Shown here one piece after another: positions 6,782-46,060 of a stretch of 46,060 bases of DNA. The stretch comes from Escherichia phage EC147. The notes beneath the pieces were generated by a model. It searched no databases and was not told the origin of the DNA. It saw nothing but the letters and a program-made list of their open reading frames with translations. The stretch lies in the sequence record ON185589.1; one strand, 5' to 3'. Within the stretch, counting starts at the first letter, position 1. The number at the start of each line of letters is the position of its first letter. The position numbers and the translations under genes were made by a program.

Positions 6782-6799
6782 CACAAAATTATGTTGCAC

Positions 6800-6820
6800 G
6801 TTTAACAAAAAATGCTATCA
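6800..6820 (-). promoter_or_regulatory. copy of conserved 21-bp element, reverse orientation, without a good -10
   Basis: GTTTAACAAAAAATGCTATCA on plus strand (revcomp TGATAGCATTTTTTGTTAAAC); on minus strand followed by CATAAT after only 6 nt instead of 18. Confidence 0.35.
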
Positions 6821-10534: not shown

Positions 10535-10579
10535 ATGATACACGATTCATAATCAATTCTTTTAACAAAAAGTGCTGTT
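10535..10579 (-). promoter_or_regulatory. copy of conserved 21-bp element with -10-like TATCAT, antisense to tail genes
   Basis: minus-strand reading AACAGCACTTTTTGTTAAAAG + 18 nt + TATCAT; sits between terminator and tail chaperone RBS. Confidence 0.35.
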
Positions 10580-21236: not shown

Positions 21237-21281
21237 ACTATACACGATCTTACAGCAGGCGTTTAGCAAAAAGTGCTATTC
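21237..21281 (-). promoter_or_regulatory. conserved 21-bp element + N18 + TATAGT (cor promoter)
   Basis: minus-strand reading ATAGCACTTTTTGCTAAAC + 18 nt + TATAGT, about 30 nt upstream of the cor ATG. Confidence 0.55.
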
Positions 21282-21339: not shown

Positions 21340-21520
21340 GTAAACAACAATAGAGAGCAATATATACAGATAAATATATATAAATACATATAAATCAATA
21401 AGTTAGTGGTATATGTATTTATATCTGTTCTTTATTGTTATCTATGTTTTGTGTGATTTTGCGTGTCTGGTGATTTTTCTGTGATTATGCATGTGTCAGT
21501 GGTTATGTGTGTATATATCT
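21340..21520. repeat. AT-rich region with ATAAAT/ATATATA tracts and GTGATT-type direct repeats
   Basis: about 500 bp non-coding between cor and exonuclease; GTGATTTT-like repeats near 21453, 21470, 21481, 21499; TGTTATC at 21436. Confidence 0.5.
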
Positions 21521-22847: not shown

Positions 22848-23135
22848 ATGGAAAACAAACAAGTGTCAAAGGTAGCAGTTCATATCAACAATTTTGCAAC
22901 TGGCATGGCTATGTTGCTTCGTGACTTTGTAGAGCCACTTGATCCAACAGCAGGCGAAGAAGAAATGGAGTACATCAGAAAAGTAATAGATGCAGTCGAT
23001 AACGTCGTGCTCATTGCGACAATGAGTGAAGACAACGAGGAAGCAATCAAGGCGGTAAAAGAAAGTTCTGATCGCATGATGGAAAATCTTATTAAATTAC
23101 ACACTAAAGAAGAAACAAAACACCAACAGCAATAA
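22848..23135 (+). CDS. hypothetical acidic protein
   Basis: 95 aa, RBS AAGGA; about 19 acidic vs 11 basic residues; between exonuclease and Erf. Confidence 0.5.
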   Translation: MENKQVSKVAVHINNFATGMAMLLRDFVEPLDPTAGEEEMEYIRKVIDAVDNVVLIATMSEDNEEAIKAVKESSDRMMENLIKLHTKEETKHQQQ

Positions 23136-27942: not shown

Positions 27943-28416
27943 TTAGCAATTAGTGCTTTCAGGTTTATACAGGAATCCGCCAGGTTCATAATCTGACATT
28001 CTTACCACTCGCAACATTTCACGCTTATCACATCTCTTTGTGAGCGGTTTTCCATTGGAATCAAATCGCAGATCTGGACGGCAGAATGAAGCGCGATAGC
28101 CTTGACAGTCATACTTTTTGTAATCGTTATGCACCTTTTGAGCACCAGCGGCTGAAATCATACCACGAACGCGCCACTGATTTACAGTTTGCTGGCTAAC
28201 GTTAAGACGTTTTGCCATTGCTGACACACTTCCGTAATACTCAATAAGGATTTCAAGTCGCGCTTTTAGTCCGGCTCGCACTTCATCTTTTAAAACATAG
28301 TATCCTGTAGGGCGCTTGCGCTTCTTCTTATCCTTGCCTCGTCTTGTTCCGTTATTGCCATTAATTGTGCGCTTGTCAATCTTGCCTGTTGATGCTGCAA
28401 TTCGTTGCTCTTTCAT
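27943..28416 (-). CDS. putative HTH DNA-binding regulator
   Basis: 157 aa; basic N-terminus (KDKKKRKRP) and helix-turn-helix-like VSAMAKRLNVSQQTVNQWRVRG; diverges from the helicase promoter. Confidence 0.55.
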   Translation of the reverse strand: MKEQRIAASTGKIDKRTINGNNGTRRGKDKKKRKRPTGYYVLKDEVRAGLKARLEILIEYYGSVSAMAKRLNVSQQTVNQWRVRGMISAAGAQKVHNDYKKYDCQGYRASFCRPDLRFDSNGKPLTKRCDKREMLRVVRMSDYEPGGFLYKPESTNC

Positions 28417-28428
28417 TATTCATTCTCC

Positions 28429-28472
28429 AATAGCATTTTTTGTTAAACGATGATTTAATGATTGTGTATTAT
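28429..28472 (+). promoter_or_regulatory. conserved element + N18 + TATTAT (helicase promoter)
   Basis: AATAGCATTTTTTGTTAAAC (28429-48), 18 nt, TATTAT (28467-72). Confidence 0.55.
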
Positions 28473-35772: not shown

Positions 35773-37356
35773 TTACCCCAGCAATGTTGGATTTACGAAA
35801 ACAACGCCATTAATCACACAAATATAATTTCTTTCTTCAAGCATCGGCAGCAGTTGCGTTTCCATACGCTTCATTACGCCAGCCTGACCAACAAACGGCT
35901 TAACTTTTCGTGCAGCCTCATATATGGCGCGAACATTCAAGATTCCCTTGTTAGCCTTACCGTGTCGAGTGATAATCTCGATTAGTTTACCCATTTCAGC
36001 ATCATCACCAGCATAGCCAGAAGCGTTGGCGGCGCTAATGTATGTTTTGCTCAACTCGCTAAACATCAGCAACGCCTCTTGAACGGTTTCAACCTCAATC
36101 TCTTTCGACTTCTGAGGGTATCCACCAGGATTAAACCAGTTGCGGATAGTGTGCAAAACTGAAGCAATCCTGATCACCTGCTTATCCATTTTGCCAAGCG
36201 CGCCGCGCAGCATTGTATGCGAATACTTTCCGCCATCGGCAAGGTGCGGTTCCATCTCCTGACGAGCCATGTTAAGAACTCGCATTGCTGATTTGCTGAT
36301 CTTAAGCTGGATGTTTGATTCACTCATGATGTTATGGATCAGCTTAAAATATTGACTTTTCAGTTCTCCATCAACAGGCTCATAAGTCGAATCACCGTTA
36401 TCATCAACAAACTTTCGACGACCTAAAAATGATTCCTCACGCACAAGCAAATAACGCTCACTTACACCGATACCGCGCGATCCTGCATCCATGATGGCAT
36501 TGATTGTTTCATCCTGAGCAATTACCGCCATACAGCCAAGAGCTTTAAAACTCATATTGTTGTCAGCGTTTGCACGAGCTATAGAAACATGACCATGATC
36601 CCATGCTTTTAGCACAAGTTCGCTGTTGGTTTTACGTTCGCTATTGGCATATGTCAGACCTAAAAGGCTGTTAATACTGGTTGCCTCGTCTGAAATCACA
36701 GCAAAGTTACCCTGGCGATTGTTGATTCTTGCAAGTCCTTCCGGCGTTGTGTCGGAGACAGGGAAAACAATGTCACACATCTTTTCCAGCTTTTCTTCAA
36801 GATCTTCTTTCTCCTGGTATAGCGATTCCATATCAGCGCCAGATCGCTCGCTTTTCATCTCTTTTGCAAGACCTGCCAACTTTGCCTGAATCTTTTTTCG
36901 TTCCTTCTTTCGCTGATCATTAATTCTTTCCACTTCAGCAACCATAGGAGCAATAGCCAGGCTGTTAACGGCAGATTTACCAGTTGAAGGAGGCTGACTT
37001 GTGACAACATAAAGAGCGGTTGGCTGATCCGTTCCGTGATACTCAACCGTGAAGCGTCCAAGCATTGCAGCAGACACGCAGCCGATGAAATGCATATAGG
37101 CCGATGATTCAGGGAATTGAACAGAGCGAGCAATGTTTCGCGCCAACTTACCAACAACATCAACATCATTGCCAAGAGAAATTACAGGGTAGCGATCGTT
37201 TCCGTTATTAACATCATTAACCTCACCCCAAAAGCTGGACGATTGACGGTATCCGTTAGCCTGAATGGACACGCGCACCGGAGACAGTCCTTGTGCATCA
37301 GCTAATTCGATAATTTGTTTTGGTGTTAGTTTATTTGTTTCAAACGAAAAATTCAT
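35773..37356 (-). CDS. putative P-loop ATPase (replication-associated)
   Basis: ATG 37356 after AAAGGAG (ORF track extends into the promoter); Walker A-like QPPSTGKS and Walker B-like VISDEA; 527 aa. Confidence 0.45.
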   Translation of the reverse strand: MNFSFETNKLTPKQIIELADAQGLSPVRVSIQANGYRQSSSFWGEVNDVNNGNDRYPVISLGNDVDVVGKLARNIARSVQFPESSAYMHFIGCVSAAMLGRFTVEYHGTDQPTALYVVTSQPPSTGKSAVNSLAIAPMVAEVERINDQRKKERKKIQAKLAGLAKEMKSERSGADMESLYQEKEDLEEKLEKMCDIVFPVSDTTPEGLARINNRQGNFAVISDEATSINSLLGLTYANSERKTNSELVLKAWDHGHVSIARANADNNMSFKALGCMAVIAQDETINAIMDAGSRGIGVSERYLLVREESFLGRRKFVDDNGDSTYEPVDGELKSQYFKLIHNIMSESNIQLKISKSAMRVLNMARQEMEPHLADGGKYSHTMLRGALGKMDKQVIRIASVLHTIRNWFNPGGYPQKSKEIEVETVQEALLMFSELSKTYISAANASGYAGDDAEMGKLIEIITRHGKANKGILNVRAIYEAARKVKPFVGQAGVMKRMETQLLPMLEERNYICVINGVVFVNPTLLG

Positions 37357-37645: not shown

Positions 37646-38028
37646 TTATACATAGCCTCAAACAAATGACAGCCACCAGCGGAAAATCCAACTTCTTCGC
37701 GGTATAGCGTCCAGCGGTCGCCAGCTTCATCAAACACATAACCAGCAACAGCACCAAGCGCGCGCCCTTGCTCAATCTGGTAACGCTTTCCTTCTTTGAA
37801 ATGCTTTTTGCACGGGATCTTGTGATCTACAAATGTGCATTTAATTGTTTTTGTCTTGATATGACGATAGTCAGACTCAACAGCGTTTTGCCACTTGCTA
37901 CCCTTTGTAATGCTCTTTACCTGGAATTGTTCCAACTCGATCACATCATCGCTACCAGCAATTTTTTCGTATACAGCTTTATAACGACCGTTCATCAAAA
38001 CGTTGGTTTTATTGCAGATAACTTTCAT
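37642..38028 (-). CDS. hypothetical protein
   Basis: 128 aa, RBS AAGGAG. Confidence 0.5.
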   Translation of the reverse strand: MKVICNKTNVLMNGRYKAVYEKIAGSDDVIELEQFQVKSITKGSKWQNAVESDYRHIKTKTIKCTFVDHKIPCKKHFKEGKRYQIEQGRALGAVAGYVFDEAGDRWTLYREEVGFSAGGCHLFEAMYK

Positions 38029-38059
38029 CGTTTATTTCTCCTTTCGTTTCGGTGAAGTG

Positions 38060-38104
38060 ATTATGCCAGGCTTTTACACCTGGCTTTTAACAAAAAGTGC
38101 TATT
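38060..38104 (-). promoter_or_regulatory. conserved element + N18 + CATAAT
   Basis: minus-strand ATAGCACTTTTTGTTAAAAG + CCAGGTGTAAAAGCCTGG + CATAAT; element TAG is the stop codon of the methyltransferase-like gene. Confidence 0.55.
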
Positions 38105-38810
38105 TTGCGTTTGCTTCAAAGACGGCGCGAGCAAAGCCGCGCGGAGTGAGGGAGCGGATCATCTTTGTGCGCGATGATTTTCCGCCAGTTTTGGCCCAGC
38201 CAGGATTATCCTTGTCGTCCTCTTTCGGAAGGATTGTTGCGCGCGGAGGAATAACAAAGCCGTTGCCAGTCCAAAGGCATGTTTTCTTAAAGTAGCGATC
38301 CCGCGCCGGAATAATATCAGGGAAGTCGGGATGTTTATCATCTTCCGGCAGATAGCCAGCGTAATCGCACGGATGGAACGTATAATCAGGCTTACGCCAT
38401 AACGTTGACAGCTTGCCTACAGGATTTTCGATCATGTAAGGAACGCCGAAATAATCAGCGATATGCGCCGCGATTCTGCAAGTGTCGGCGGCCTCATCCT
38501 GGAAAGAGGGGTTCTCAAGGCGTTTTTTGGACCAATGGCGAGATCCGCTATTTGCAAGGTCAGTGCACGGCGGAAATGCCATAATGAAATCAGGCTTACC
38601 CCAATTTTCAAGTTTTGCGGTATATTTGAATAGCTCATCAATCCACACATTAACGTAAAAAATATTATCATGGATTATGCGCACTGATTGGTAATCTCCG
38701 TGATCGGCATCATCGTAATTAAAGCAAATGCATTTATATCCAGCATCAGCCCAATCTTTAACGGCTTTACCAGATCCATCAAACAAAGAGAATATTAAAC
38801 CTTTATACAT
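38100..38810 (-). CDS. compact DNA (cytosine-5) methyltransferase-like protein
   Basis: 236 aa; motif I-like FSLFDGSG, motif IV-like FPPCTD (Pro-Cys), motif VI-like IENPVG; too short for a canonical target-recognition domain. Confidence 0.5.
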   Translation of the reverse strand: MYKGLIFSLFDGSGKAVKDWADAGYKCICFNYDDADHGDYQSVRIIHDNIFYVNVWIDELFKYTAKLENWGKPDFIMAFPPCTDLANSGSRHWSKKRLENPSFQDEAADTCRIAAHIADYFGVPYMIENPVGKLSTLWRKPDYTFHPCDYAGYLPEDDKHPDFPDIIPARDRYFKKTCLWTGNGFVIPPRATILPKEDDKDNPGWAKTGGKSSRTKMIRSLTPRGFARAVFEANAK

Positions 38811-38819
38811 TTCATCACC

Positions 38820-39011
38820 TCAAAACGGAAAGCATCGCGGGCAGTTAGGATCAAAATTGCAGCCGCAATCATTGACAATCATAGTTGGATCTGCAAATGC
38901 AGCGCCGCATTCATGATCCATATCCATTTCACCCAACGCATCATCAAGCGTCCTGATCTTATATGCAACTTCAAGCGCTGCCTCTTTATTTAATCCGGCA
39001 TCTTCAGCCAT
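38820..39011 (-). CDS. small Cys-rich protein (possible zinc-binding)
   Basis: 63 aa; HECG..DCGCNFDPNCPRC; stop lies 7 nt before the start of the methyltransferase-like gene. Confidence 0.45.
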   Translation of the reverse strand: MAEDAGLNKEAALEVAYKIRTLDDALGEMDMDHECGAAFADPTMIVNDCGCNFDPNCPRCFPF

Positions 39012-39040
39012 TTGCAGGCGCTCAAAAAATCCGTCCTAAC

Positions 39041-39154
39041 TCATTTCATAAACTCCTTGATAACAACAATAATAATAGCAAGACCAGCAGTGACAACCAA
39101 AAGACCAGCAAGGCCAATCATCACTCCAAATAAAATATCAAGAAATTTCATCAT
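39041..39154 (-). CDS. possible 37-aa hydrophobic membrane peptide
   Basis: MMKFLDILFGVMIGLAGLLVVTAGLAIIIVVIKEFMK; RBS AAGGTGA 6 nt upstream; below ORF-track cutoff. Confidence 0.4.
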   Translation of the reverse strand: MMKFLDILFGVMIGLAGLLVVTAGLAIIIVVIKEFMK

Positions 39155-39201
39155 TATTATCACCTTTATTTAAAGGGAGGCGAAAACCTCCCGTTCATTA
39201 A

Positions 39202-39429
39202 TTAGACAGCCTTCCAGCTTTCAATGAACATGCTGTTCTCTTCAAGAAGTTTAATCAATTCTTCGCGTGTATATTTGCGGATTTTACTACCAGGATGCGA
39301 GCCAACAACAAACACGCCTTTACCGCTTGTTATTGTCAACTGGTTGATTCCGCAAGATTTATCCATTTTCACAGCGACGCGGTGATGTGCATCAACAGTG
39401 TGCATGATGTTAGTGACTTTAGCTTTCAT
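39202..39429 (-). CDS. hypothetical protein
   Basis: ATG 39429 after GAGGA (ORF track extends into the promoter); 75 aa. Confidence 0.5.
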   Translation of the reverse strand: MKAKVTNIMHTVDAHHRVAVKMDKSCGINQLTITSGKGVFVVGSHPGSKIRKYTREELIKLLEENSMFIESWKAV

Positions 39430-39459
39430 TATGCAATCCTCATTATATTCGGTGTGGTA

Positions 39460-39502
39460 ACTATACCAAGTTTGCGAAATATTGTTTAACAATTCGTGCT
39501 AT
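39460..39502 (-). promoter_or_regulatory. conserved element variant + N18 + TATAGT
   Basis: minus-strand ATAGCACGAATTGTTAAAC + 18 nt + TATAGT. Confidence 0.5.
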
Positions 39503-39603
39503 CAGTTGAAATAGCTATGGCGCTTTGCTCGCTTGTCGTCTCCGCCATAATGATCATTAGAAACGGCAATCATCCAGGCATTATGGAATATTATTAACTT
39601 CAT

Positions 39604-39885
39604 CTAATTAATACCCACCACGTTAAAACTTACAGCTTTTGTTGCGCCAAATACATACGCCTCAACAGCGCCGCCAAATACGCGAATTTTTCCCTGGCCG
39701 TACTGCGCATTCATATTGCGCCAAACCGTTCTATTACAACAGAACGCGTGACCAGTCTTAATAAGCGTATCCATATCTTTTCTTAGATCGCGATAGTCAA
39801 GCCAGAATGTAAAAGCGCGTTGTTTAATTCGCGCCGCCTTGATTGTTTCGATTGCGCTATTGAAATCATTCTTTTCGTATGCCAT
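39604..39885 (-). CDS. hypothetical protein
   Basis: 93 aa; start overlaps stop of upstream gene (TAATG). Confidence 0.45.
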   Translation of the reverse strand: MAYEKNDFNSAIETIKAARIKQRAFTFWLDYRDLRKDMDTLIKTGHAFCCNRTVWRNMNAQYGQGKIRVFGGAVEAYVFGATKAVSFNVVGIN

Positions 39886-40124
39886 TAGATTTTCTCCAAA
39901 TTCTCGATCTTGTTATTGCCAATTGAAGAATGAACGCAACGCTCTTGCGTCTCCTTGTTGCCATGAACATCAATATAATACCCTGGTATAACAGTAAAAA
40001 ACCAATTGCCACGCCAGAAGAAATAAAGGCCGTGCTTGCTTCCTTTCGCGCATTTATTCGCATTTTTAGGTATTGGAAGTCCGTGGACTCGCCGCAATTC
40101 TACATTCTTGTTAAAATTTGGCAT
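39885..40124 (-). CDS. hypothetical protein
   Basis: 79 aa, RBS GGAGG; Trp/Phe-rich. Confidence 0.45.
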   Translation of the reverse strand: MPNFNKNVELRRVHGLPIPKNANKCAKGSKHGLYFFWRGNWFFTVIPGYYIDVHGNKETQERCVHSSIGNNKIENLEKI

Positions 40125-40318
40125 TATACAACCTCCATAAATGTATTAAACCCGCGAAGTTTGAAAGCATCGCCATGTTTAACAACGTTCCATGTCAGGC
40201 CGGAGTGATACGCAACCATATCCTCAAGATCAATTGTGATGATAGCGCCTTTCTTAAAGATTCCTTTCTCGTGAGTGGTGTCACGCTGTACAACTTTAAC
40301 ATCAACCTGTGTTTCCAT
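40124..40318 (-). CDS. hypothetical protein (first gene of minus-strand early operon)
   Basis: 64 aa, RBS GAGGA; promoter element directly upstream. Confidence 0.5.
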   Translation of the reverse strand: METQVDVKVVQRDTTHEKGIFKKGAIITIDLEDMVAYHSGLTWNVVKHGDAFKLRGFNTFMEVV

Positions 40319-40349
40319 TTTTAAATCCTCGTTCGTTGTCGATGCGCTT

Positions 40350-40394
40350 AATATACCAATCAGAGGCGCATCGGTTTTAACAAAAAGTGCTATT
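40350..40394 (-). promoter_or_regulatory. conserved element + N18 + TATATT
   Basis: minus-strand AATAGCACTTTTTGTTAAAAC + 18 nt + TATATT. Confidence 0.55.
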
Positions 40395-40430
40395 TCTCAA
40401 CTGGCGATTATTCCATCTATTCAATTAATC

Positions 40431-40928
40431 AGGAATAACAGGAATAACTTATTCGAGATCACCTTGATTGTGAGATCTTGAGTTTGATCAATTTTAATCA
40501 GTTGATTAACTTTTTGTGTGGAGGGGATAGAGAAACACGGTCCTCTTGCATCCTTTCCGGTAATCCTAGCGCGCGCATCTGTTATCTTCTGTTATCGCTG
40601 TTATGCGTGTTATTCCGGCGTGGAATCGCATAACAAAAAATAACAAGAAAAATCCATATAACATACTAAAAAATAAGGATTATTTATTTATATGTATCTA
40701 TAAATTATTATCTGTTATGTGTGTTATGTGGGTGTATTGATAACTGATGTATTTTTGGTGGTTGTGTGTGGTTGTGTGTTGGTTGGTATGTATATATAGG
40801 GGTGGGGCGTATCCGCGCATTTTTAGATAACACGCAAAAACAACATTGATTTATAAGAAAAAAAACGCGAATCTTGTTATCTTCTGAAAAGATAACATCG
40901 GAAAACCGCCAGTAACAATAAAAAACAG
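40431..40928. repeat. iteron-rich, AT-rich intergenic region (candidate origin / control region)
   Basis: tandem AGGAATAAC x2 (40431-48); GATC x3 (40457-89); palindrome TAATCAGTTGATTA (40495-508); TGTTAT x4 at 9-10 bp period (40580-614); more TGTTATC/GATAACA copies; GTTGTGTGTG x2 (40761-80). Confidence 0.6.
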
Positions 40929-40958
40929 TTGACACGCCAGGTGGCGGTAAATGATAAT
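40929..40958 (+). promoter_or_regulatory. sigma70-like promoter for plus-strand early operon
   Basis: TTGACA (40929-34), 18-nt spacer, GATAAT (40953-58). Confidence 0.5.
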
Positions 40959-40989
40959 GCAGTCACTGAGTCACGAGGGGGTATAAAGC

Positions 40990-41460
40990 ATGAGTGAATC
41001 TGTATTTACAAATGAGCTTCGCAAGGTTGCGATTGCGCTCGCATCTGGATTGCACGAATCGATCCAGATACCTGAAAGATGGGTAAGGCAGCACCTGGAG
41101 GGCAAGAAGTCAGCCAGCAATGCTGGATCATATATCCGTCAGATTATGGGGCGCGTTCCAGAAGTGGCGGAGAAGGGGAGAGTTTCAGTTTCAAAGAAAC
41201 CTTACGGCCCTGATAGCGAATATTTCGGAGAAAATTACTTTGATGTGGCGATTGTTAGTGCGCCGAATCGCAGGGTGTACAATAAGGCCGCGCTTGAGAA
41301 GGCTGTAGCGAAAGCAAAACGCCAGGTTGCTGAGTCGATGCTTAAAGTCTCACCAAACCTAGCGAACTACTCGCCAGATGAATATGAAACACTTGCTAAG
41401 GCGATCGCAGACTTTCACGCGATCATTAAAGAAACATATCTTAACGATGAGGGGCAATAA
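40990..41460 (+). CDS. hypothetical protein
   Basis: 156 aa, RBS GAGGGGG. Confidence 0.5.
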   Translation: MSESVFTNELRKVAIALASGLHESIQIPERWVRQHLEGKKSASNAGSYIRQIMGRVPEVAEKGRVSVSKKPYGPDSEYFGENYFDVAIVSAPNRRVYNKAALEKAVAKAKRQVAESMLKVSPNLANYSPDEYETLAKAIADFHAIIKETYLNDEGQ

Positions 41461-41461
41461 A

Positions 41462-41710
41462 ATGAGCAAACTTACTCTTGATGAACTGATGGAAAAAATT
41501 GATGAAGTGGGCTTTAACAAACTGGTTGATTTCCACTTGACCGCATGTGAAATCACCGCACAGGAGTTTAGCGACATGCTATCTGATGCGAGCGAGATTT
41601 ATACAAGCCTATGCGGAAGAGAAATCAAAGTCATTGAAATTGAAATGCCTGGAGATCCGGTATTTGCAAGGCTTGTGGCTGCATTCGATGAGGAGAATGT
41701 TGGACTCTGA
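41462..41710 (+). CDS. hypothetical protein
   Basis: ATG 41462 after GAGGGG, 1 nt after upstream stop; 82 aa (internal Met of ORF 41378..41710). Confidence 0.5.
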   Translation: MSKLTLDELMEKIDEVGFNKLVDFHLTACEITAQEFSDMLSDASEIYTSLCGREIKVIEIEMPGDPVFARLVAAFDEENVGL

Positions 41711-41715
41711 GCGGA

Positions 41716-41760
41716 AATAGCACTTTTTGTTAAAACGCCAGGCGCAAAACCTGGCATAAT
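41716..41760 (+). promoter_or_regulatory. conserved element + N18 + CATAAT
   Basis: AATAGCACTTTTTGTTAAAAC + GCCAGGCGCAAAACCTGG + CATAAT. Confidence 0.55.
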
Positions 41761-41792
41761 AGCCTCATCGAAACGAGATTGAGGAAACAAAA

Positions 41793-41978
41793 ATGGCACG
41801 TCGCATCACCAAAGACCTTAAAGTCCTGAACAAAGAAAACGTAGTTAAAATCCTGGTTATCTGGGGCTACAACGAAGAAGCAGCAAAGCAGAAGGTAGAG
41901 GCAGGTTATGAACTGGCTGTAAAAGCAATGCCAAACGACGACGCCAAAGGCATTGCAAACTATGTGGCTTTCTTTTAA
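41793..41978 (+). CDS. hypothetical protein
   Basis: 61 aa, RBS GAGGAAA. Confidence 0.45.
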   Translation: MARRITKDLKVLNKENVVKILVIWGYNEEAAKQKVEAGYELAVKAMPNDDAKGIANYVAFF

Positions 41979-41993
41979 TTAGCAGGTGAATAA

Positions 41994-42179
41994 ATGAAAA
42001 CGAAATTAGTCCATAAATCAGAAATCAAGATCGGCGATACTGTGATTCACAACGGCGAGCTTAGAACGGTTGGCAAAGAGTCAATAAGCAAAGATGAATT
42101 TATGGGGATCTTGTTGTTCGGTGACTCTTATCGTCTTGGTTATAAAATGGTTGAGCTTGTGGAAGAGGTAAAATTCTAA
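41994..42179 (+). CDS. hypothetical protein
   Basis: 61 aa, RBS AGGTGA. Confidence 0.45.
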   Translation: MKTKLVHKSEIKIGDTVIHNGELRTVGKESISKDEFMGILLFGDSYRLGYKMVELVEEVKF

Positions 42180-42223
42180 ATAGCACTTTTTGTTAAAACT
42201 CAAAAACGATAACCAGGCATAAT
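42179..42223 (+). promoter_or_regulatory. conserved element + N18 + CATAAT
   Basis: AATAGCACTTTTTGTTAAAAC starting at the last base of the upstream stop; CATAAT 42218-23. Confidence 0.55.
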
Positions 42224-42278
42224 AAATCACATAGGGCGGCACGGCATCGCCCAGTTAAACCAATCAGGAGAAAGCACC

Positions 42279-42596
42279 ATGTTAAAACTTGCTGACATTA
42301 AATACCCGATCACATTCGAATCTCGCGGCGTTGGTCATTTCATGTTTACCGACGAGAAGACATGCACTAAGTTTAACGAATACGGAAGCCCAAACGCTTC
42401 AACAATGGAGATTGAACACTTCATTGAAGCGCACAATAAACACTACAACTCACTCAGAGACTACGCTTACGCAATGCCAGGATACACATGTTTTCACTAC
42501 AAGCCATATAAAGGCCAGGTGTTACCAGTGCGCTCACCGGAACGCGCAGAGATTCCGATGGTCAATATGAAAACCTGCGACTACAAAAAGCTGTGA
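42279..42596 (+). CDS. hypothetical protein (N-terminal domain paralogous to next ORF)
   Basis: 105 aa, RBS AGGAG; ADIKYPITF..AHNK resembles DNIKYPIVF..AHNK of ORF 42622; stop TGA is created inside a 16-bp tandem duplication. Confidence 0.5.
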   Translation: MLKLADIKYPITFESRGVGHFMFTDEKTCTKFNEYGSPNASTMEIEHFIEAHNKHYNSLRDYAYAMPGYTCFHYKPYKGQVLPVRSPERAEIPMVNMKTCDYKKL

Positions 42597-42610
42597 CTAC
42601 AAAAAGCTGT
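42579..42610 (+). repeat. perfect 16-bp tandem duplication (GACTACAAAAAGCTGT x2)
   Basis: copy 1 at 42579-94, copy 2 at 42595-610; spans the stop codon at 42594-96; 16 is not a multiple of 3. Confidence 0.9.
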
Positions 42611-42621
42611 GGTGCTTAAGC

Positions 42622-43176
42622 GTGGATAACATCAAGTATCCGATTGTTTTTCATTGTGGCGGTGGTTCAACAATCAGGTTCACATCGCGCGACAATGGCG
42701 TTTATAGCAATGGTCAGAAATCAGAGTTGAAAGTTGATTTCTTTGTCAACGCTCATAACAAATTCAATCCACACAATAAAGAAGATAAGGTGTACTACGT
42801 GGAAGACATTACAAAACACTTGTTTGGAGAAACACCATTCGGCGGCGGTAAGTCATATTTTGCGCAGGCGATAGATAACGCTGCGCGACGCATTGGTGAG
42901 CAGATTCACAGTCAAACAATTAAGGCGTCTGGTCTTGTTGCGAAAGACGTCGTAAGTCAGGGCGCTATTGAATACATGCCAGTTGCCGCCACGCTAAAAG
43001 GCGTCCAAATTGCGGATGGCACATGGTTTGAATTAACGGCAAAACCAAAGACTATCGAGATTCATGATGACGTTGTTATCCTCCTACTTCACTATGGCGG
43101 CGCTAAAAACCGGACTGTTGCAGGTGAGATCAGCATCAAGCGCGGGACGATGGTTAAGTGGAAGGTCAAAGTGTAA
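42622..43176 (+). CDS. hypothetical protein (GTG start; paralogous N-terminus)
   Basis: 184 aa; no in-frame ATG near the start; GTG at 42622 with GGTG 7 nt upstream; reading frame is continuous with the upstream ORF if one repeat copy is removed. Confidence 0.5.
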   Translation: MDNIKYPIVFHCGGGSTIRFTSRDNGVYSNGQKSELKVDFFVNAHNKFNPHNKEDKVYYVEDITKHLFGETPFGGGKSYFAQAIDNAARRIGEQIHSQTIKASGLVAKDVVSQGAIEYMPVAATLKGVQIADGTWFELTAKPKTIEIHDDVVILLLHYGGAKNRTVAGEISIKRGTMVKWKVKV

Positions 43177-43219
43177 ATAGCACGAATTGTTAAAACTCAA
43201 ATGTGGGGCCAGGTATAAT
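43176..43219 (+). promoter_or_regulatory. conserved element variant + N17 + TATAAT
   Basis: AATAGCACGAATTGTTAAAAC + 17 nt + TATAAT (43214-19). Confidence 0.55.
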
Positions 43220-43249
43220 GGCCCTACTTTCAACGAAGGAGATAAAACG

Positions 43250-43480
43250 ATGTACATTAACAAGAAGATGAAATGCATTTCCGTTAACTATGGTTGCTCT
43301 GGCATGTTCAAGCCTGGCGAAATCTATATGGCGCAAAAGTTGAAATCATCAACCGGATCTTTTTACGTCAGCAACAGTAAAGGACATCGCATGTTCCTGA
43401 ACGGTGGTGAAGGCAATAAGGTTATGGCACACGCTATGGTAATTGCTGAATTTGAAGAGGTGAAAGATGGAAACAAATAA
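43250..43480 (+). CDS. hypothetical protein
   Basis: ATG 43250 after AGGAG (ORF track start 43187 lies in the promoter); 76 aa. Confidence 0.5.
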   Translation: MYINKKMKCISVNYGCSGMFKPGEIYMAQKLKSSTGSFYVSNSKGHRMFLNGGEGNKVMAHAMVIAEFEEVKDGNK

Positions 43481-43688
43481 GCGCGTTAAGCACAAGTTTA
43501 TTGATAATCATCGCGATGCACTTGAGGTATATAAGGTTGGTGATCTCGTGTTTATTGATGGCACGTTTGAAGGTGGACGCAGGCCTGATTTTAGGTCGAT
43601 ACTTACCGTTGACCAAGTGCGCAAGCTGGCGGATAAGTTAAATGATCTGGCAGATGAAATCGAATACAAGCAAATCCATTTTAATTGA
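43467..43688 (+). CDS. hypothetical protein
   Basis: 73 aa, RBS GAGGTGA; overlaps upstream ORF. Confidence 0.45.
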   Translation: METNKRVKHKFIDNHRDALEVYKVGDLVFIDGTFEGGRRPDFRSILTVDQVRKLADKLNDLADEIEYKQIHFN

Positions 43689-43699
43689 TAGGTTTGATA

Positions 43700-44173
43700 A
43701 TGAAAAAATACACTTTCGAACTGTGGGGCAAGAAGTACGAATTAATGACCAGTAAGCCGATTGTTATCGTTGACCTGGACGGCACACTATCGGACGGATC
43801 GCATCGTTTGCATTTGCTGCCAACTGAAAACTTGCACCTTACGGAATCGTGGCGCGAGTTTAACAGGGCCGCCGCCGGAGATTCACCGATTAAAAGCTAT
43901 CGTAAAATGTTGATTAACGCATTCGAAAAGGCAGCGCTTGAGCGTGGTTGGAATGACTCATTTCACACAGCAAACTGTATCCGCCGTTACGGATTCAAGA
44001 ATTGCCGCTCATGGGCGCGTGAAATGGCTTCATGGTATGATCTTGATGCGCATTACCTTGATATGGATTGCGCCCTGGTTGAAATGATTGAACAGGCAGC
44101 ATTAGAGGATCGACCATTAACGCAATCTGATTTTGACGATTTTGTGCGCGATGAAATTTATTATATGAGCTAA
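43700..44173 (+). CDS. HAD-superfamily phosphatase (polynucleotide 3'-phosphatase-like)
   Basis: HAD motif I VIVDLDGTLSDG (DxDGT); ATG 43700 (ORF track 43685 is TTG); 157 aa. Confidence 0.55.
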   Translation: MKKYTFELWGKKYELMTSKPIVIVDLDGTLSDGSHRLHLLPTENLHLTESWREFNRAAAGDSPIKSYRKMLINAFEKAALERGWNDSFHTANCIRRYGFKNCRSWAREMASWYDLDAHYLDMDCALVEMIEQAALEDRPLTQSDFDDFVRDEIYYMS

Positions 44174-44216
44174 TAGCACTTTTTGTTAAAACTTCCGCGA
44201 GGGCATTTGTTAAAGT
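44172..44216 (+). promoter_or_regulatory. conserved element + N18 + TAAAGT (weaker -10)
   Basis: AATAGCACTTTTTGTTAAAAC overlapping the upstream stop TAA; TAAAGT at 44211-16. Confidence 0.45.
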
Positions 44217-44248
44217 GTCCTCATTGAAGCGAAACAGAGGAAATCAAA

Positions 44249-44461
44249 ATGAAAATTCGAATCACCAGGGTTGACATTGACCGCAACGACGGAAGCATTA
44301 CCCTTGAGCAATGCGGGTTCAAAGTTGGTGACATTGTAGAGGTTGACGGATTCTTTTGCGATGGTTCTTACTGCGTGTTAGCAATCCGCAACACAGAAGA
44401 AATTCGAATCGGTGATAACATCGGCGTAAATCATGACGAATGCGAGGTAGTAGAAGAATGA
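44249..44461 (+). CDS. hypothetical protein
   Basis: 70 aa, RBS AGAGGAAA. Confidence 0.45.
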   Translation: MKIRITRVDIDRNDGSITLEQCGFKVGDIVEVDGFFCDGSYCVLAIRNTEEIRIGDNIGVNHDECEVVEE

Positions 44462-44691
44462 TCACGATTAACCTTTCAGAGAAGCAAGCATATCAAGTGA
44501 TGCGCTACATTTCTGGCTTTGGTATGGAAGGCGCTATGGGTGAAGTTGCGGATCAGATTTGCCGTCAACTTACACCAGCACCAACGCGAGCGGCAGAAAC
44601 TGCCGCATGGCGCAACGAGGCTGGATACATCCAGAAAGCTATTGAAGACTGGAAGCGCAAAAACGAGACTGCGGAGGATGCAGGATTATGA
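44458..44691 (+). CDS. hypothetical protein
   Basis: ATG 44458 after GAGGTAG, ATGA overlap with upstream stop; 77 aa. Confidence 0.45.
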   Translation: MITINLSEKQAYQVMRYISGFGMEGAMGEVADQICRQLTPAPTRAAETAAWRNEAGYIQKAIEDWKRKNETAEDAGL

Positions 44692-45002
44692 TTTACATTC
44701 ACTACTACCAGATCGGGACAAACGAAAACAAGCAGGAGCGCAGAGCAATTTGTGACACGCTCGACGATGCGAAAGCACAGCAACGCGTTTTGGGTGGCGT
44801 AATTCAGGCTTTTGAGTCAGTGGAAGACATAGAGCACCGAGAGCATTTGAAAGAGATTGTTGTTGATGAAATTTCATCACTAATCGACGACATGACAAAT
44901 CACGGGCCTGGTTCTCCGTGGGAAGAAGCCGGATCGACGGAGTGGGATTGCGCTAAAGTTGCAACGCTTAACAACTTTCGTGAGTTGCTCGACGATTTTT
45001 AA
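44688..45002 (+). CDS. hypothetical acidic protein
   Basis: 104 aa; ATGA overlap with upstream gene. Confidence 0.45.
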   Translation: MIYIHYYQIGTNENKQERRAICDTLDDAKAQQRVLGGVIQAFESVEDIEHREHLKEIVVDEISSLIDDMTNHGPGSPWEEAGSTEWDCAKVATLNNFRELLDDF

Positions 45003-45011
45003 TTAAAATTG

Positions 45012-45058
45012 AATGCCTCATACAGCGAACAGGACGCATTTTGACGAGGCATTTTTTA
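45012..45058 (+). terminator. terminator-like hairpin
   Basis: AATGCCTC..GAGGCATT (8-bp stem, long loop) followed by TTTTTT. Confidence 0.45.
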
Positions 45059-45064
45059 GGTAAG

Positions 45065-45190
45065 GTGATTCACATAAAACCGTCGCAGTGGTGCGCACAG
45101 AAGCAAGAGGAAGCATTAGAACGCGGCGACACTGAAACGGCAATGCACTATTTCGAAATGTACAACTTGTGGAAGGGTAGAGGTCTGTAA
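45065..45190 (+). CDS. possible small protein (41 aa, GTG start)
   Basis: GTG after AGGTAA; stop overlaps ATG of next gene (TAATG); below ORF-track cutoff. Confidence 0.25.
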   Translation: MIHIKPSQWCAQKQEEALERGDTETAMHYFEMYNLWKGRGL

Positions 45191-45420
45191 TGTTTGGAAT
45201 GAACGAGACACAATTCAACGCTGCAAAACGCCAGGCCAAGAAGTGCGGCGAGGCAATGAAGGCGGATGTTGAAAAGCGCGGGAAGTATGTTGATGAAGTT
45301 ATGAAGGGCATTATTGCCGAACATTATCAGCCAGTTGCGCCAATGCTGACAATTACCCAATTCATCTGGTTGTGTGGTTATCTTCGTGGGCGATGGGGAA
45401 ACGCATTTGACCGCGAATGA
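45190..45420 (+). CDS. hypothetical protein
   Basis: 76 aa, RBS GGTAGAGG; preferred over overlapping minus-strand ORFs. Confidence 0.5.
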   Translation: MFGMNETQFNAAKRQAKKCGEAMKADVEKRGKYVDEVMKGIIAEHYQPVAPMLTITQFIWLCGYLRGRWGNAFDRE

Positions 45421-45449
45421 TTGACAACGATTTCCTGATTGGATAGCAT
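45421..45449 (+). promoter_or_regulatory. sigma70-like promoter (TTGACA-17-TAGCAT) at the start of a structured leader
   Basis: TTGACA at 45421-26 immediately after the upstream stop; 17-nt spacer; TAGCAT at 45444-49; near-palindrome GATTGGATAGCATATCAATC in the spacer/-10. Confidence 0.4.
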
Positions 45450-45510
45450 ATCAATCGTTTACATAAGAGCGGCTAAGGCCGAACGGGTGGCGCGGTTGCC
45501 ACGCAACAAC

Positions 45511-45552
45511 GGCGATATGCAGGTTTTTACCGTAAGACGTATCGCCTTTTTA
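45511..45552 (+). terminator. terminator / attenuator-like hairpin in the leader
   Basis: GGCGATA..TATCGCC followed by TTTTT, ending 13 nt before ATG 45565; contains a 12-codon mini-ORF (45517..45555). Confidence 0.45.
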
Positions 45553-45564
45553 TGAGGATAAAGA

Positions 45565-45747
45565 ATGAAGTGGAAAGTTATCCTTACCATACGGAAAATG
45601 GGCAGGAACTGCGCGACATGTAAACAAGAATTTGAAACAACTGTTACGGCATGTAGCGCCGAGATGGCAGTAAGACTGGCAAAAGATTACTCCGGAGCCA
45701 ATCAAGAAACGCACCAGTTTTCAGTTAATTTAGTGAGGAAAATATAA
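45565..45747 (+). CDS. hypothetical protein
   Basis: 60 aa, RBS GAGGA; basic; Cys pair CATC. Confidence 0.5.
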   Translation: MKWKVILTIRKMGRNCATCKQEFETTVTACSAEMAVRLAKDYSGANQETHQFSVNLVRKI

Positions 45748-45980
45748 TGTTAAACTTAATTTCTGCCTTTGTTGTTGGTTTTGTTTTTGCTGTAATTATT
45801 TTGCTTATAGCGTCGGAAAAGATTTGCAAATTTTTTGCTAAGAACGGGAAGTTTGCAAGCGCGACATGGAATAACAAGATGCAGCGATGGGATGTGCGCG
45901 GTCACTATCTGACGATTGGTAGCAAAATCCATCAGCATCTGAAGAATCAAGAAGATGAAAAAGTAAAATACAAGTGTTGA
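45747..45980 (+). CDS. hypothetical membrane protein
   Basis: 77 aa; N-terminal TMD LISAFVVGFVFAVIILLIA; RBS GAGGAAA; TAATG overlap with upstream gene. Confidence 0.5.
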   Translation: MLNLISAFVVGFVFAVIILLIASEKICKFFAKNGKFASATWNNKMQRWDVRGHYLTIGSKIHQHLKNQEDEKVKYKC

Positions 45981-45986
45981 ACAACT

Positions 45987-46011
45987 ACCCGCCAAATGGC
46001 GGGTTTTTTAT
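45987..46011 (+). terminator. rho-independent terminator
   Basis: ACCCGCC-AAAT-GGCGGGT followed by TTTTTT; then TATAAT and AAGGAGG at the window edge point to a gene starting just past 46060. Confidence 0.65.
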
Positions 46012-46060
46012 TGCCTGCAATTTGTCTATAATGATGCTTTGTTATAAAGGAGGGCGCATT

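Follow-up and report, generated by a model that had tools for sequence, protein, structure and literature searches.

Gene Content of the Two Divergent Clusters

Escherichia phage EC147 (record ON185589.1; the 46,060 bp analyzed as a whole are called the window) carries at positions 39202-45980 two divergent clusters of small genes around a central spacer, and it is this region, with the repeated promoter-like element found in it, that we examined here. With start sites refined by ribosome-binding sites and by the annotation of relatives, the region holds 20 credible genes, four leftward (m1-m4) and 16 rightward (p1-p16; 40990-45980), whose products range from 49 to 184 amino acids (aa) with a median of 76. 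An initial annotation of the window had counted about 25 open reading frames (ORFs); beyond the 20 genes we find one doubtful 38-aa ORF (45439-45555), which has neither a family match nor a ribosome-binding site. Its picture of two divergent clusters of small, tightly packed ORFs with overlapping stop and start codons is borne out by a coding density of 88% outside the 671-bp central spacer and by seven gene junctions that overlap by 1-14 nt in the ATGA or TAATG style. Just left of the range, before a methyltransferase gene, lie m5 (39041, a membrane peptide) and m6 (38820-39011).

Family searches were made with all 20 proteins against PHROGs and with 19 of the 20, p15 and p16 included, against Pfam. 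A PHROG or Pfam family was matched by 18 of the 20 genes at E ≤ 6e-5, in most cases far better, and nearly all of the matched families are restricted to phages and of unknown function. No family match was obtained for m3 in either PHROG or Pfam, and none for p13 in Pfam. Six relatives supplied ungapped orthologues for 18 of the in-region ORFs, whose ratio of nonsynonymous to synonymous polymorphism (pN/pS) lies between 0.04 and 0.45, well under 1. Of the 20 genes, 19 could be compared with relatives, all of them under purifying selection, and with the family matches this establishes that the ORFs are real genes.

A megablast search with 39202-45980 against 50,697 phage records returned 229 related records, headed by Hanrivervirus genomes at 90-95% identity (best matches damhaus, pSf-1, ESh4, vojen and JakobBernoulli/Bas07), and no single record covers more than 82% of the region. 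The matching stretch spans 10.3-11.2 kb in the best-matching relatives versus 6.8 kb here. At 46,060 bp against ~51 kb in close relatives, the window looks like a complete but reduced Hanrivervirus-like genome (Drexlerviridae, Tempevirinae, T1-like). The layout of the relatives is identical: the leftward small-gene cluster leads to a Dcm-like methyltransferase and replication genes, and the rightward cluster to the small terminase gene, which occupies positions 1-522 at the start of the window. T1 (ST77-ST55 and ST1-ST10) and other Drexlerviridae such as pSf-1, damhaus and JakobBernoulli/Bas07 have the same two divergent clusters of hypothetical genes around a genome-end spacer, although T1 homologues are detectable for only 8 of the 22 proteins searched. 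Compared with T1 and the Hanriverviruses, the present region is shorter, contains a pnk'-'gp66 fusion and a frameshifted p5/p6, has fewer left-hand cassettes and shows an allele combination of its own. Neither the region nor its gene families nor its promoter is peculiar to this phage: all belong to a phage family that is well sampled, and this copy is a new mosaic member of it with two instructive lesions.

A 21-bp Box Heads Most Transcription Units

The initial annotation had proposed that each sub-operon is driven by a conserved element. Such an element does exist: the 21-mer AATAGCACTTTTTGTTAAAAC occurs in 14 copies genome-wide at up to four mismatches, eight of them exact, where we estimate that chance would supply about 2e-8 exact copies in 46 kb (2 x 46,060 / 4^21). 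The same box, again in 14 copies and with the same geometry, is present in T1, which belongs to a different subfamily. Of the 14 window copies 12, and of the 14 T1 copies 11, have a -10-like hexamer (CATAAT, TATAAT, TATATT or TATTAT) starting 17-18 nt behind the box; a start codon with its ribosome-binding site comes 47-62 nt after most boxes, and several copies share a leader close to CATCGAAACGA. The geometry from box to -10 is thus conserved across subfamilies. Literature searches turned up nothing pertinent on the box sequence and no informative transcriptome work on Drexlerviridae.

Folds predicted for the 45 nt behind each box are more stable than those of randomly drawn genome segments, both in the window and in T1 (Mann-Whitney p = 3e-4 and p = 1e-5, respectively). 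The stems differ in sequence from copy to copy, and a stem either fills the space from box to -10 or spans the -10 itself. In three of the 14 window copies (6819, 10579 and 42179) no hairpin exceeds the background median in stability.

Five boxes lie in the region, one on the minus strand (40394) and four on the plus strand (41716, 42179, 43176 and 44172). The leftward promoter module (40350-40394, minus strand; box 40394-40374, TATATT at 40355-40350) has the ATG of m1 55 nt after its box and doubles as a cassette joint. Rightward, a box-hairpin-CATAAT module (41716-41761) heads p3-p4 and marks a homology-block boundary in four of six relatives; a box-CATAAT module (42179-42224) heads p5/p6; a variant box (AATAGCACGAATTGTTAAAAC), found likewise in T1, with TATAAT (43176-43220) heads p7-p9; and a box-hairpin-TAAAGT module (44172-44216) heads p10-p14. 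A box therefore heads five of the seven transcription units rather than every one of them, those without being p1-p2 and p15-p16. The first of these has a near-consensus sigma-70 promoter, TTGACA-18-GATAAT (40929-40958, plus strand; 11 of 12 positions match), which is kept upstream of a 60%-identical p1 allele in one relative (L010), and p15-p16 has at most a weaker sigma-70-like site (45421-45449). The rightward cluster ends in a predicted intrinsic terminator (45987-46010, plus strand) with a 7-bp stem, six GC pairs and a following TTTTTATT. A further sigma-70-like site upstream of m4 (39469-39442) was discounted because its -10 abuts the ribosome-binding site.

Evidence on how such a module is read comes from phage Bas11, where GATAGCACTTTTTGTTAAAAC-N18-GTATCAT stands in front of gene 54. 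With primer TZ-58, "gp54 with its native promoter" was cloned by Zhang et al. (PMC11578894), and the phage part of this construct starts exactly at the box, TAGCACTTTTTGTTAAAAC. Gp54-Flag was detected from the cloned fragment in uninfected MG1655, and escape mutations immediately upstream of gene 54 lower its expression (PMC11578894). As the Bas11 box fragment is active in uninfected E. coli, the module acts there as a promoter for the host polymerase without a phage factor, and host RNA polymerase may be expected to read the box modules of the present phage in the same way. Of the earlier claim that these are early genes, expression by the host polymerase is plausible in view of the sigma-70 promoter of p1 and the Bas11 counterpart; the timing in this phage we could only infer.

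A gene for a T1 ST23-type transcriptional regulator (27943-28416; phrog_2856, E 3e-78) adjoins the box copy at 28429, which heads a helicase gene.

Cassette Boundaries Coincide with the Promoter Modules

Six relatives that are more than 90% identical in their shared parts differ by whole cassettes and by allele replacements at 25-50% identity. Across these genomes the identity of p1 is either 97% or 25%, that of p10 99% or 40% and that of p11 99% or 41-49%, and p16 falls as low as 38%. The presence/absence comparison that the initial annotation had called for was made on this set and revealed cassettes gained, lost and replaced.

The cassette-level differences coincide with the positions of the boxes. 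Two cassettes have box copies as their exact bounds. At the leftward module, a 22-nt stretch (40374-40395) matches each of two boxes in damhaus, which stand 855 bp apart and enclose three genes absent here. The p3-p4 cassette (41761-42178), with a 47-nt module copy on either side, is missing in phage A136, which keeps a single hybrid copy. Overall, 17 of 75 boundaries between homology blocks lie no more than 30 nt from a box, where 4.6 would be expected (p = 2e-6), and so do 6 of 29 distinct boundary sites (p = 0.007), in a test on six related genomes whose events are not phylogenetically independent.

This arrangement resembles that of the T4-type promoter-early stem-loop (PeSL) elements, which accompany mobile cassettes in hyperplastic regions (Arbiol et al. 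2010, PMC2839356; Comeau et al. 2014, PMC4122927). Common to both are repeated promoter and stem-loop motifs on either side of sets of small ORFs with no known function, and indel or replacement junctions between close relatives that fall at these motifs. The likeness is one of analogy and not of membership, since phage family and motif sequence are unrelated. In the present phage, moreover, a long invariant 21-bp box precedes the hairpin, which lies between box and -10 or across the -10, and the recombination role is putative. In the literature searched we found no description of a PeSL-like role for box modules in Drexlerviridae.

The Central Spacer and the p1 Gene

The two clusters diverge from a 671-bp AT-rich spacer (40319-40989) of 37% G+C, in which the stretch 40395-40928 (no strand assigned) carries an array of TGTTAT/ATAACA hexamers. 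The spacer contains 13 such hexamers where the genome density predicts 0.84, and four of them are phased at 9-10 bp (40580-40613). In the T1 record the genome ends lie at the equivalent place, where the terminal repeat also begins: that record is linearized within the equivalent spacer, and its positions 1-2800 are annotated as terminal repeat. We regard the hexamers as probably a protein-binding array, putatively serving as pac, ori or operator, and the spacer may take part in packaging or replication. Another AT-rich intergenic segment, 21366-21401 in the large spacer that precedes the gene for a RecE-like exonuclease, is 86% complementary over 36 nt to 40680-40715 in the central spacer.

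The first rightward gene, p1 (40990-41460, plus strand), encodes a 156-aa DUF7174 protein that is a candidate DNA-binding protein. In its structural model the N-terminal domain, at a predicted local distance difference test (pLDDT) score of ~87, runs helix-strand-helix-helix-strand-strand and is followed by two long helices. A structure search returned weak matches of winged-helix type, and BFVD returned only uncharacterized T1-like proteins. The number of hexamers in the spacer varies with the p1 allele: spacers with alleles at least 86% identical contain 10-13 copies, two loci with 60%-identical alleles contain 7, and those with the 25%-identity allele contain 3-6. The last show other repeats such as ATACCCAT, and T1 has CGATTAAC in the same place. 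This pattern fits an inheritance of p1 together with its binding array, and simple linkage would give the same pattern. The p1 product is probably a DNA-binding protein that acts on the adjacent TGTTAT array. Among the six relatives, the downstream gene p2 (41462-41710, plus strand; 82 aa, net charge -12; phrog_31863, E 9e-46), which encodes an acidic protein, is found only alongside the p1 allele of the window type.

Two Lesions Mark a Reduced Copy of the Region

The ORF at 43700-44173 (plus strand), p9, had been listed as a HAD phosphatase and thus as one of the few recognizable domains. Its 157 codons prove to be an in-frame fusion in which the first 65 codons of pnk run on into a 95-aa gene of the damhaus gp66 type, present from its codon 4 onward. 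The PHROG match is split accordingly, residues 6-71 matching polynucleotide kinase and residues 62-156 the unrelated family phrog_8758, and the junction lies at a 7-nt microhomology, TAAAAGC (43891-43897). Relative to damhaus, ~2.8 kb is missing, comprising the rest of pnk, six whole genes (among them a P-loop NTPase gene) and three gp66 codons. The left flank of the junction is 98-99% identical to phages with an intact pnk, and none of the 50,697 phage records spans the junction itself.

The parent enzyme is a T4 Pnkp-type kinase/3'-phosphatase, annotated in T1 as ST64 and in relatives, and residues 1-65 of p9 align with its N terminus. HAD motif I (DxDxT) is retained as DLDGT within IVIVDLDGTLSD. 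The match nevertheless covers only positions 6-73 of the 218-position profile, and the alignment to the damhaus and JakobBernoulli proteins ends at residue 65. From there on p9 continues as an unrelated protein, without the VILTGRSD, RKEDNRKD and AFDDSPN segments that carry the remaining HAD motifs in relatives. With motifs II-IV gone and only motif I left, p9 is by its sequence a deletion remnant and not an enzyme.

The second lesion affects p5 (42279-42596) and p6 (42622-43176), which together occupy 42279-43176 on the plus strand and both match phrog_7116. In JakobBernoulli, aaroes and pSf-1 the two are one continuous ORF of ~293-300 aa. Here a 16-bp tandem duplication (ACTACAAAAAGCTGTG twice, 42580-42611) shifts the frame and leads to a TGA at 42594-42596, and p6 begins at a GTG without a ribosome-binding site. 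The gene is split at the same spot in damhaus, in that case by a TGG-to-TGA change; as the two splits were caused by different changes, they arose twice independently. Both lesions, together with the missing left-hand cassettes, fit a genome ~5 kb shorter than those of its relatives.

A Gp54-Family Protein in the Leftward Cluster

The first leftward gene, m1 (40124-40318, minus strand; 64 aa), matches Pfam family PF25180, "phage antiviral trigger protein Gp54", at E 5.4e-37 and 125.8 bits (cut-off 27), with residues 1-64 aligned to positions 1-65 of the 65-position profile. It also matches Bas11 Gp54 in the PDB (9axb) at E 2.5e-11, with 62% BLASTP identity over residues 1-45, and its pN/pS is 0.07. 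Judged by these matches, m1 is a full-length member of the Gp54 family. Bas11 Gp54 (PF25180; PDB 9axb and 9erv) is of similar size, 66 aa, and its gene has the same context, behind the GATAGCACTTTTTGTTAAAAC box, in a leftward cluster of small genes and upstream of a Dcm-like methyltransferase. The C terminus of m1 has diverged, and the 62% identity is limited to the N-terminal 45 residues.

Bas11 Gp54 directly activates the toxin-antitoxin defense system CapRelSJ46 and is non-essential in the laboratory, whereas the homologues of SECphi27, Bas5, Bas8 and Bas10 do not trigger CapRelSJ46 (PMC11578894). Either A7V or I25V is sufficient to abolish activation by the Bas11 protein (PMC11578894). At these two positions m1 has V7 and A25, in place of A7 and I25 in Bas11 Gp54. 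Because of these residues, and given the inactive homologues, m1 is probably not a trigger of CapRelSJ46. Bas11 escape clones include large deletions over gene 54 and its neighbors (PMC11578894), which are dispensable in that phage.

Remaining Genes of the Region

In the leftward cluster, m1 is followed on the minus strand by m2 (39885-40124; 79 aa, DUF7274, Pfam E 2.8e-24), a variable cassette gene present in only one of the six close relatives and with a T1 homologue, ST74, in the opposite cluster. Next comes m3 (39604-39885; 93 aa), a diverged allele at 73-87% identity to its positional homologues and with a pN/pS of 0.33. The last gene, m4 (39202-39429; 75 aa), is conserved throughout the family (phrog_4344, E 1.5e-33; T1 ST5 42% identical; pN/pS 0.04), and we place its start at the ATG at 39429, which is preceded by a GAGG ribosome-binding site, and not at the upstream TTG.

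On the plus strand, p3 (41793-41978; DUF7421) and p4 (41994-42179) form a two-gene cassette between box modules (41793-42179). The small genes p7 (43250-43480) and p8 (43467-43688), spanning 43250-43688, have weak PHROG matches and a pN/pS of 0.11-0.13; p8 is absent from three of the six relatives. The p10-p14 unit (44249-45420) comprises p10 (44249-44461; net charge -9), p11 (44458-44691; DUF7180), p12 (44688-45002), p13 (45041-45190, start uncertain) and p14 (45190-45420), and p10 and p11 show allele replacement at 40-49% identity among close relatives. The product of p12 is the acidic protein that the initial annotation had recognized at 44688 (isoelectric point 4.4, net charge -13). Its model reached a pLDDT of 84 and found no fold match among solved structures (best Foldseek E 0.49). 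The terminal pair (45565-45980) consists of p15 (45565-45747), with a CxxC motif, and p16 (45747-45980; DUF7299), whose N-terminal membrane helix accounts for the transmembrane protein reported for the region; m5, also of membrane type, lies outside it. In some relatives p15 and p16 are represented by alleles of 38-62% identity. A tRNA/tmRNA search of the window found none, and Rfam gave no RNA gene match at E ≤ 0.1 in 38000-46060.

Interpretation of the Region

We consider it likely, with some room for doubt, that the region is the known hyperplastic early/accessory gene region of a T1-like phage, organized in swappable cassettes headed by promoters. In the arrangement that we propose, ~20 genuine small genes would be grouped in short cassettes, most of them headed by a family-wide promoter module that consists of the 21-bp box, usually a variable hairpin, a -10 spaced 17-18 nt from the box and a short conserved leader (CATCGAAACGA) that contains the ribosome-binding site. 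Host RNA polymerase would read these modules and the near-consensus sigma-70 promoter before p1-p2 to give short, translationally coupled messages, and the predicted terminator after p16 would separate them from the late genes. The repeated modules may double as recombination joints, at which cassettes would be gained, lost and replaced between related phages in a PeSL-like manner. The present phage would then be a reduced copy, shaped by a microhomology-mediated deletion of ~2.8 kb, a 16-bp duplication and the absence of left-hand cassettes, with most genes of unknown function and individually dispensable.

Within this arrangement, we regard it as a serious possibility, though not as the expected outcome, that Drexlerviridae possess a PeSL-like system, in which the module is both early promoter and recombination joint and in which p1 and the TGTTAT array form an allele-specific DNA-recognition pair at the packaging end. 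The mechanism of recombination at the modules is suggested by the positions of the boundaries.

Several observations weigh against the arrangement as proposed. At a spacing of 17 bp the box module lacks a good -35 hexamer; TTAAAA, with an 18-19-bp spacer, comes closest. The arrangement assigns no role to the hairpin, and the T1 record annotates three of the box hairpins as rho-independent terminators. Three box copies (6799-6819, 10559-10579 and 21260-21280; 2-4 mismatches) are antisense to the surrounding structural genes. Early timing in this phage rests on inference, the boundary test has the non-independence already noted, and the deletion and the duplication, known from a single sequence, could in principle be assembly errors.

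The initial annotation had read the region mainly as a reservoir of early-expressed inhibitors of restriction, CRISPR, abortive infection and other defenses, together with host-shutoff factors. Such a reading is compatible with the cassette arrangement and differs from it only in making the inhibition of defenses the main function, which seems doubtful to us. The genes have the properties that one would look for, being small, of early type, hypervariable and dispensable, with 25-50%-identity replacements between near-identical phages as at known counter-defense loci, and the strongly acidic products of p2 (-12), p10 (-9) and p12 (-13) would suit DNA mimics. Relatives carry a pnk-type gene, and in T4 the Pnkp family mends tRNA that the anticodon nuclease PrrC has cleaved. 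CapRelSJ46 senses Bas11 Gp54, and Zhang et al. suggest that this protein may inhibit another system (PMC11578894). The Gp54 family is, however, documented only as a trigger, and so as a liability to the phage rather than as an inhibitor. The families most easily linked with counter-defense, pnk and the adjacent P-loop NTPase gene, are the ones deleted here, and with p5/p6 split as well the phage manages without them. In the BASEL study, most Drexlerviridae were found to be very sensitive to restriction-modification systems (PMC8594841).

The searches for remote homology and structure that the initial annotation had recommended bear on the same question, and they brought to light the Gp54 family for m1 and no anti-defense function. 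No match to a known anti-defense protein (Ocr, ArdA/B, Gam, gp5.9, Acr, Tad, Gad and others) was obtained in Pfam (19 of the 20 in-region proteins), NCBIfam and PADLOC (all 22 proteins, with nothing meaningful in either) or PDB sequences, a survey that used no dedicated anti-defense profile library. Within the region, characterized families were matched only by m1 (Gp54) and by the pnk part of p9, and when all 22 proteins were concatenated and compared with PDB sequences only Gp54 was matched. Structure models were made of p12 and p1, and that of p12, as described above, matches no solved structure. A PADLOC hit to Csx1 (E 0.006) was disregarded, as it had no aligned stretch, and the phage genes treated in a paper on Zorya/Druantia/ARMADA and in another on RAZR lie outside this region. 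Some of the genes may well deal with host defenses, which is a plausible guess. Because relatives differ by cassettes and alleles, because genes are lost or broken here and because m1 belongs to the Gp54 family, the data support a pool of accessory genes, each dispensable by itself, that is in contact with host immunity.

A different account of the modules takes them as composite terminator-promoter punctuation, in which the hairpin ends or attenuates the upstream message and its A/T-rich tail serves as the next -10, so that the units are insulated from one another. We think this unlikely, although it has substance. In T1 (L007) the three hairpins annotated as rho-independent terminators (38973-39001, 41980-42007 and 35930-35971) stand directly after boxes and overlap the apparent promoter spacer and -10; hairpins are enriched after boxes in general; the box starts at the upstream stop codon or a few nt from it; and T4-type PeSLs have been described as composite terminator/promoter motifs (PMC4122927). 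Yet about half of the copies have no U-tract, the hairpin spanning the -10 or being followed by a sequence that is not U-rich, such as CATCGAAACGA. A terminator scan called none of the box hairpins in the region, and in three window copies no hairpin exceeds the background median stability.

It has less to recommend it that the box is the site of a phage activator, either p1 or the ST23-type regulator (27943-28416), so that the modules would be delayed-early or middle promoters and only p1-p2 immediate-early. The box is far better conserved than an ordinary -35, and its deduced center near -41 is the position of a class II activator; p1, with its winged-helix-like domain, is alone in the region in having a near-consensus sigma-70 promoter; and the regulator gene stands next to a box copy. 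As the Bas11 box fragment works in uninfected cells, we have largely rejected this dependence on an activator and regard it as quite improbable. That the small ORFs are decaying or non-functional sequence, be it chance ORFs or pseudogenes, is very improbable, for apart from the two visibly damaged loci (the pnk fusion and the p5/p6 split) and the 38-aa ORF at 45439-45555, family matches are strong for 18 of the 20 ORFs, every in-region ORF with an ungapped orthologue has a pN/pS well under 1, and ribosome-binding sites and coupled start/stop overlaps are in place.

For annotation, a tempting misreading is corrected: the sole "recognizable enzyme" of the region is a deletion scar. In addition, one ORF now has a name from the Gp54 family, which has a solved structure and one member known to trigger CapRel. 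The findings show no anti-defense function, and the region is a known feature of the family. The PeSL-like role of the box modules is the most interesting lead, resting on six related genomes. As promoter and joint in one, the modules offer a testable route for the reshuffling of accessory genes in T1-like phages and a simple way to delimit cassettes. If the PeSL-like reading is true, cassettes would be excised, inserted and exchanged between co-infecting phages through homology of the modules, and the p1/array pair would serve allele-specific DNA recognition at an operator, an origin or pac. The reduced variant can also be seen as a natural experiment, in which ~10 accessory genes, among them pnk, the P-loop NTPase gene and that of the p5/p6 protein, are evidently dispensable for propagation.

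Neighboring Genes and Related Records

Two further proteins that the initial annotation had assigned to the region lie outside it. The most cysteine-rich of the small proteins (5 Cys in 63 aa) is the product of m6 at 38820-39011, which is also acidic. It aligns from position 13 of a 75-position family profile, and relatives annotate 74 aa, so that the copy here appears to be without ~11 N-terminal residues. The acidic ORF at 22848-23135 (95 aa) stands between the genes for a RecE-like exonuclease and an Erf-like annealing protein and belongs to a recombination module.

Among the related records, ~20 that are labeled "Campylobacter phage" and marked UNVERIFIED (MG065687, which is L006, A136, A14a, A13a and others) are Hanriverviruses that are 95% identical to this coliphage-type sequence, and either their host label is probably wrong or the samples were contaminated.

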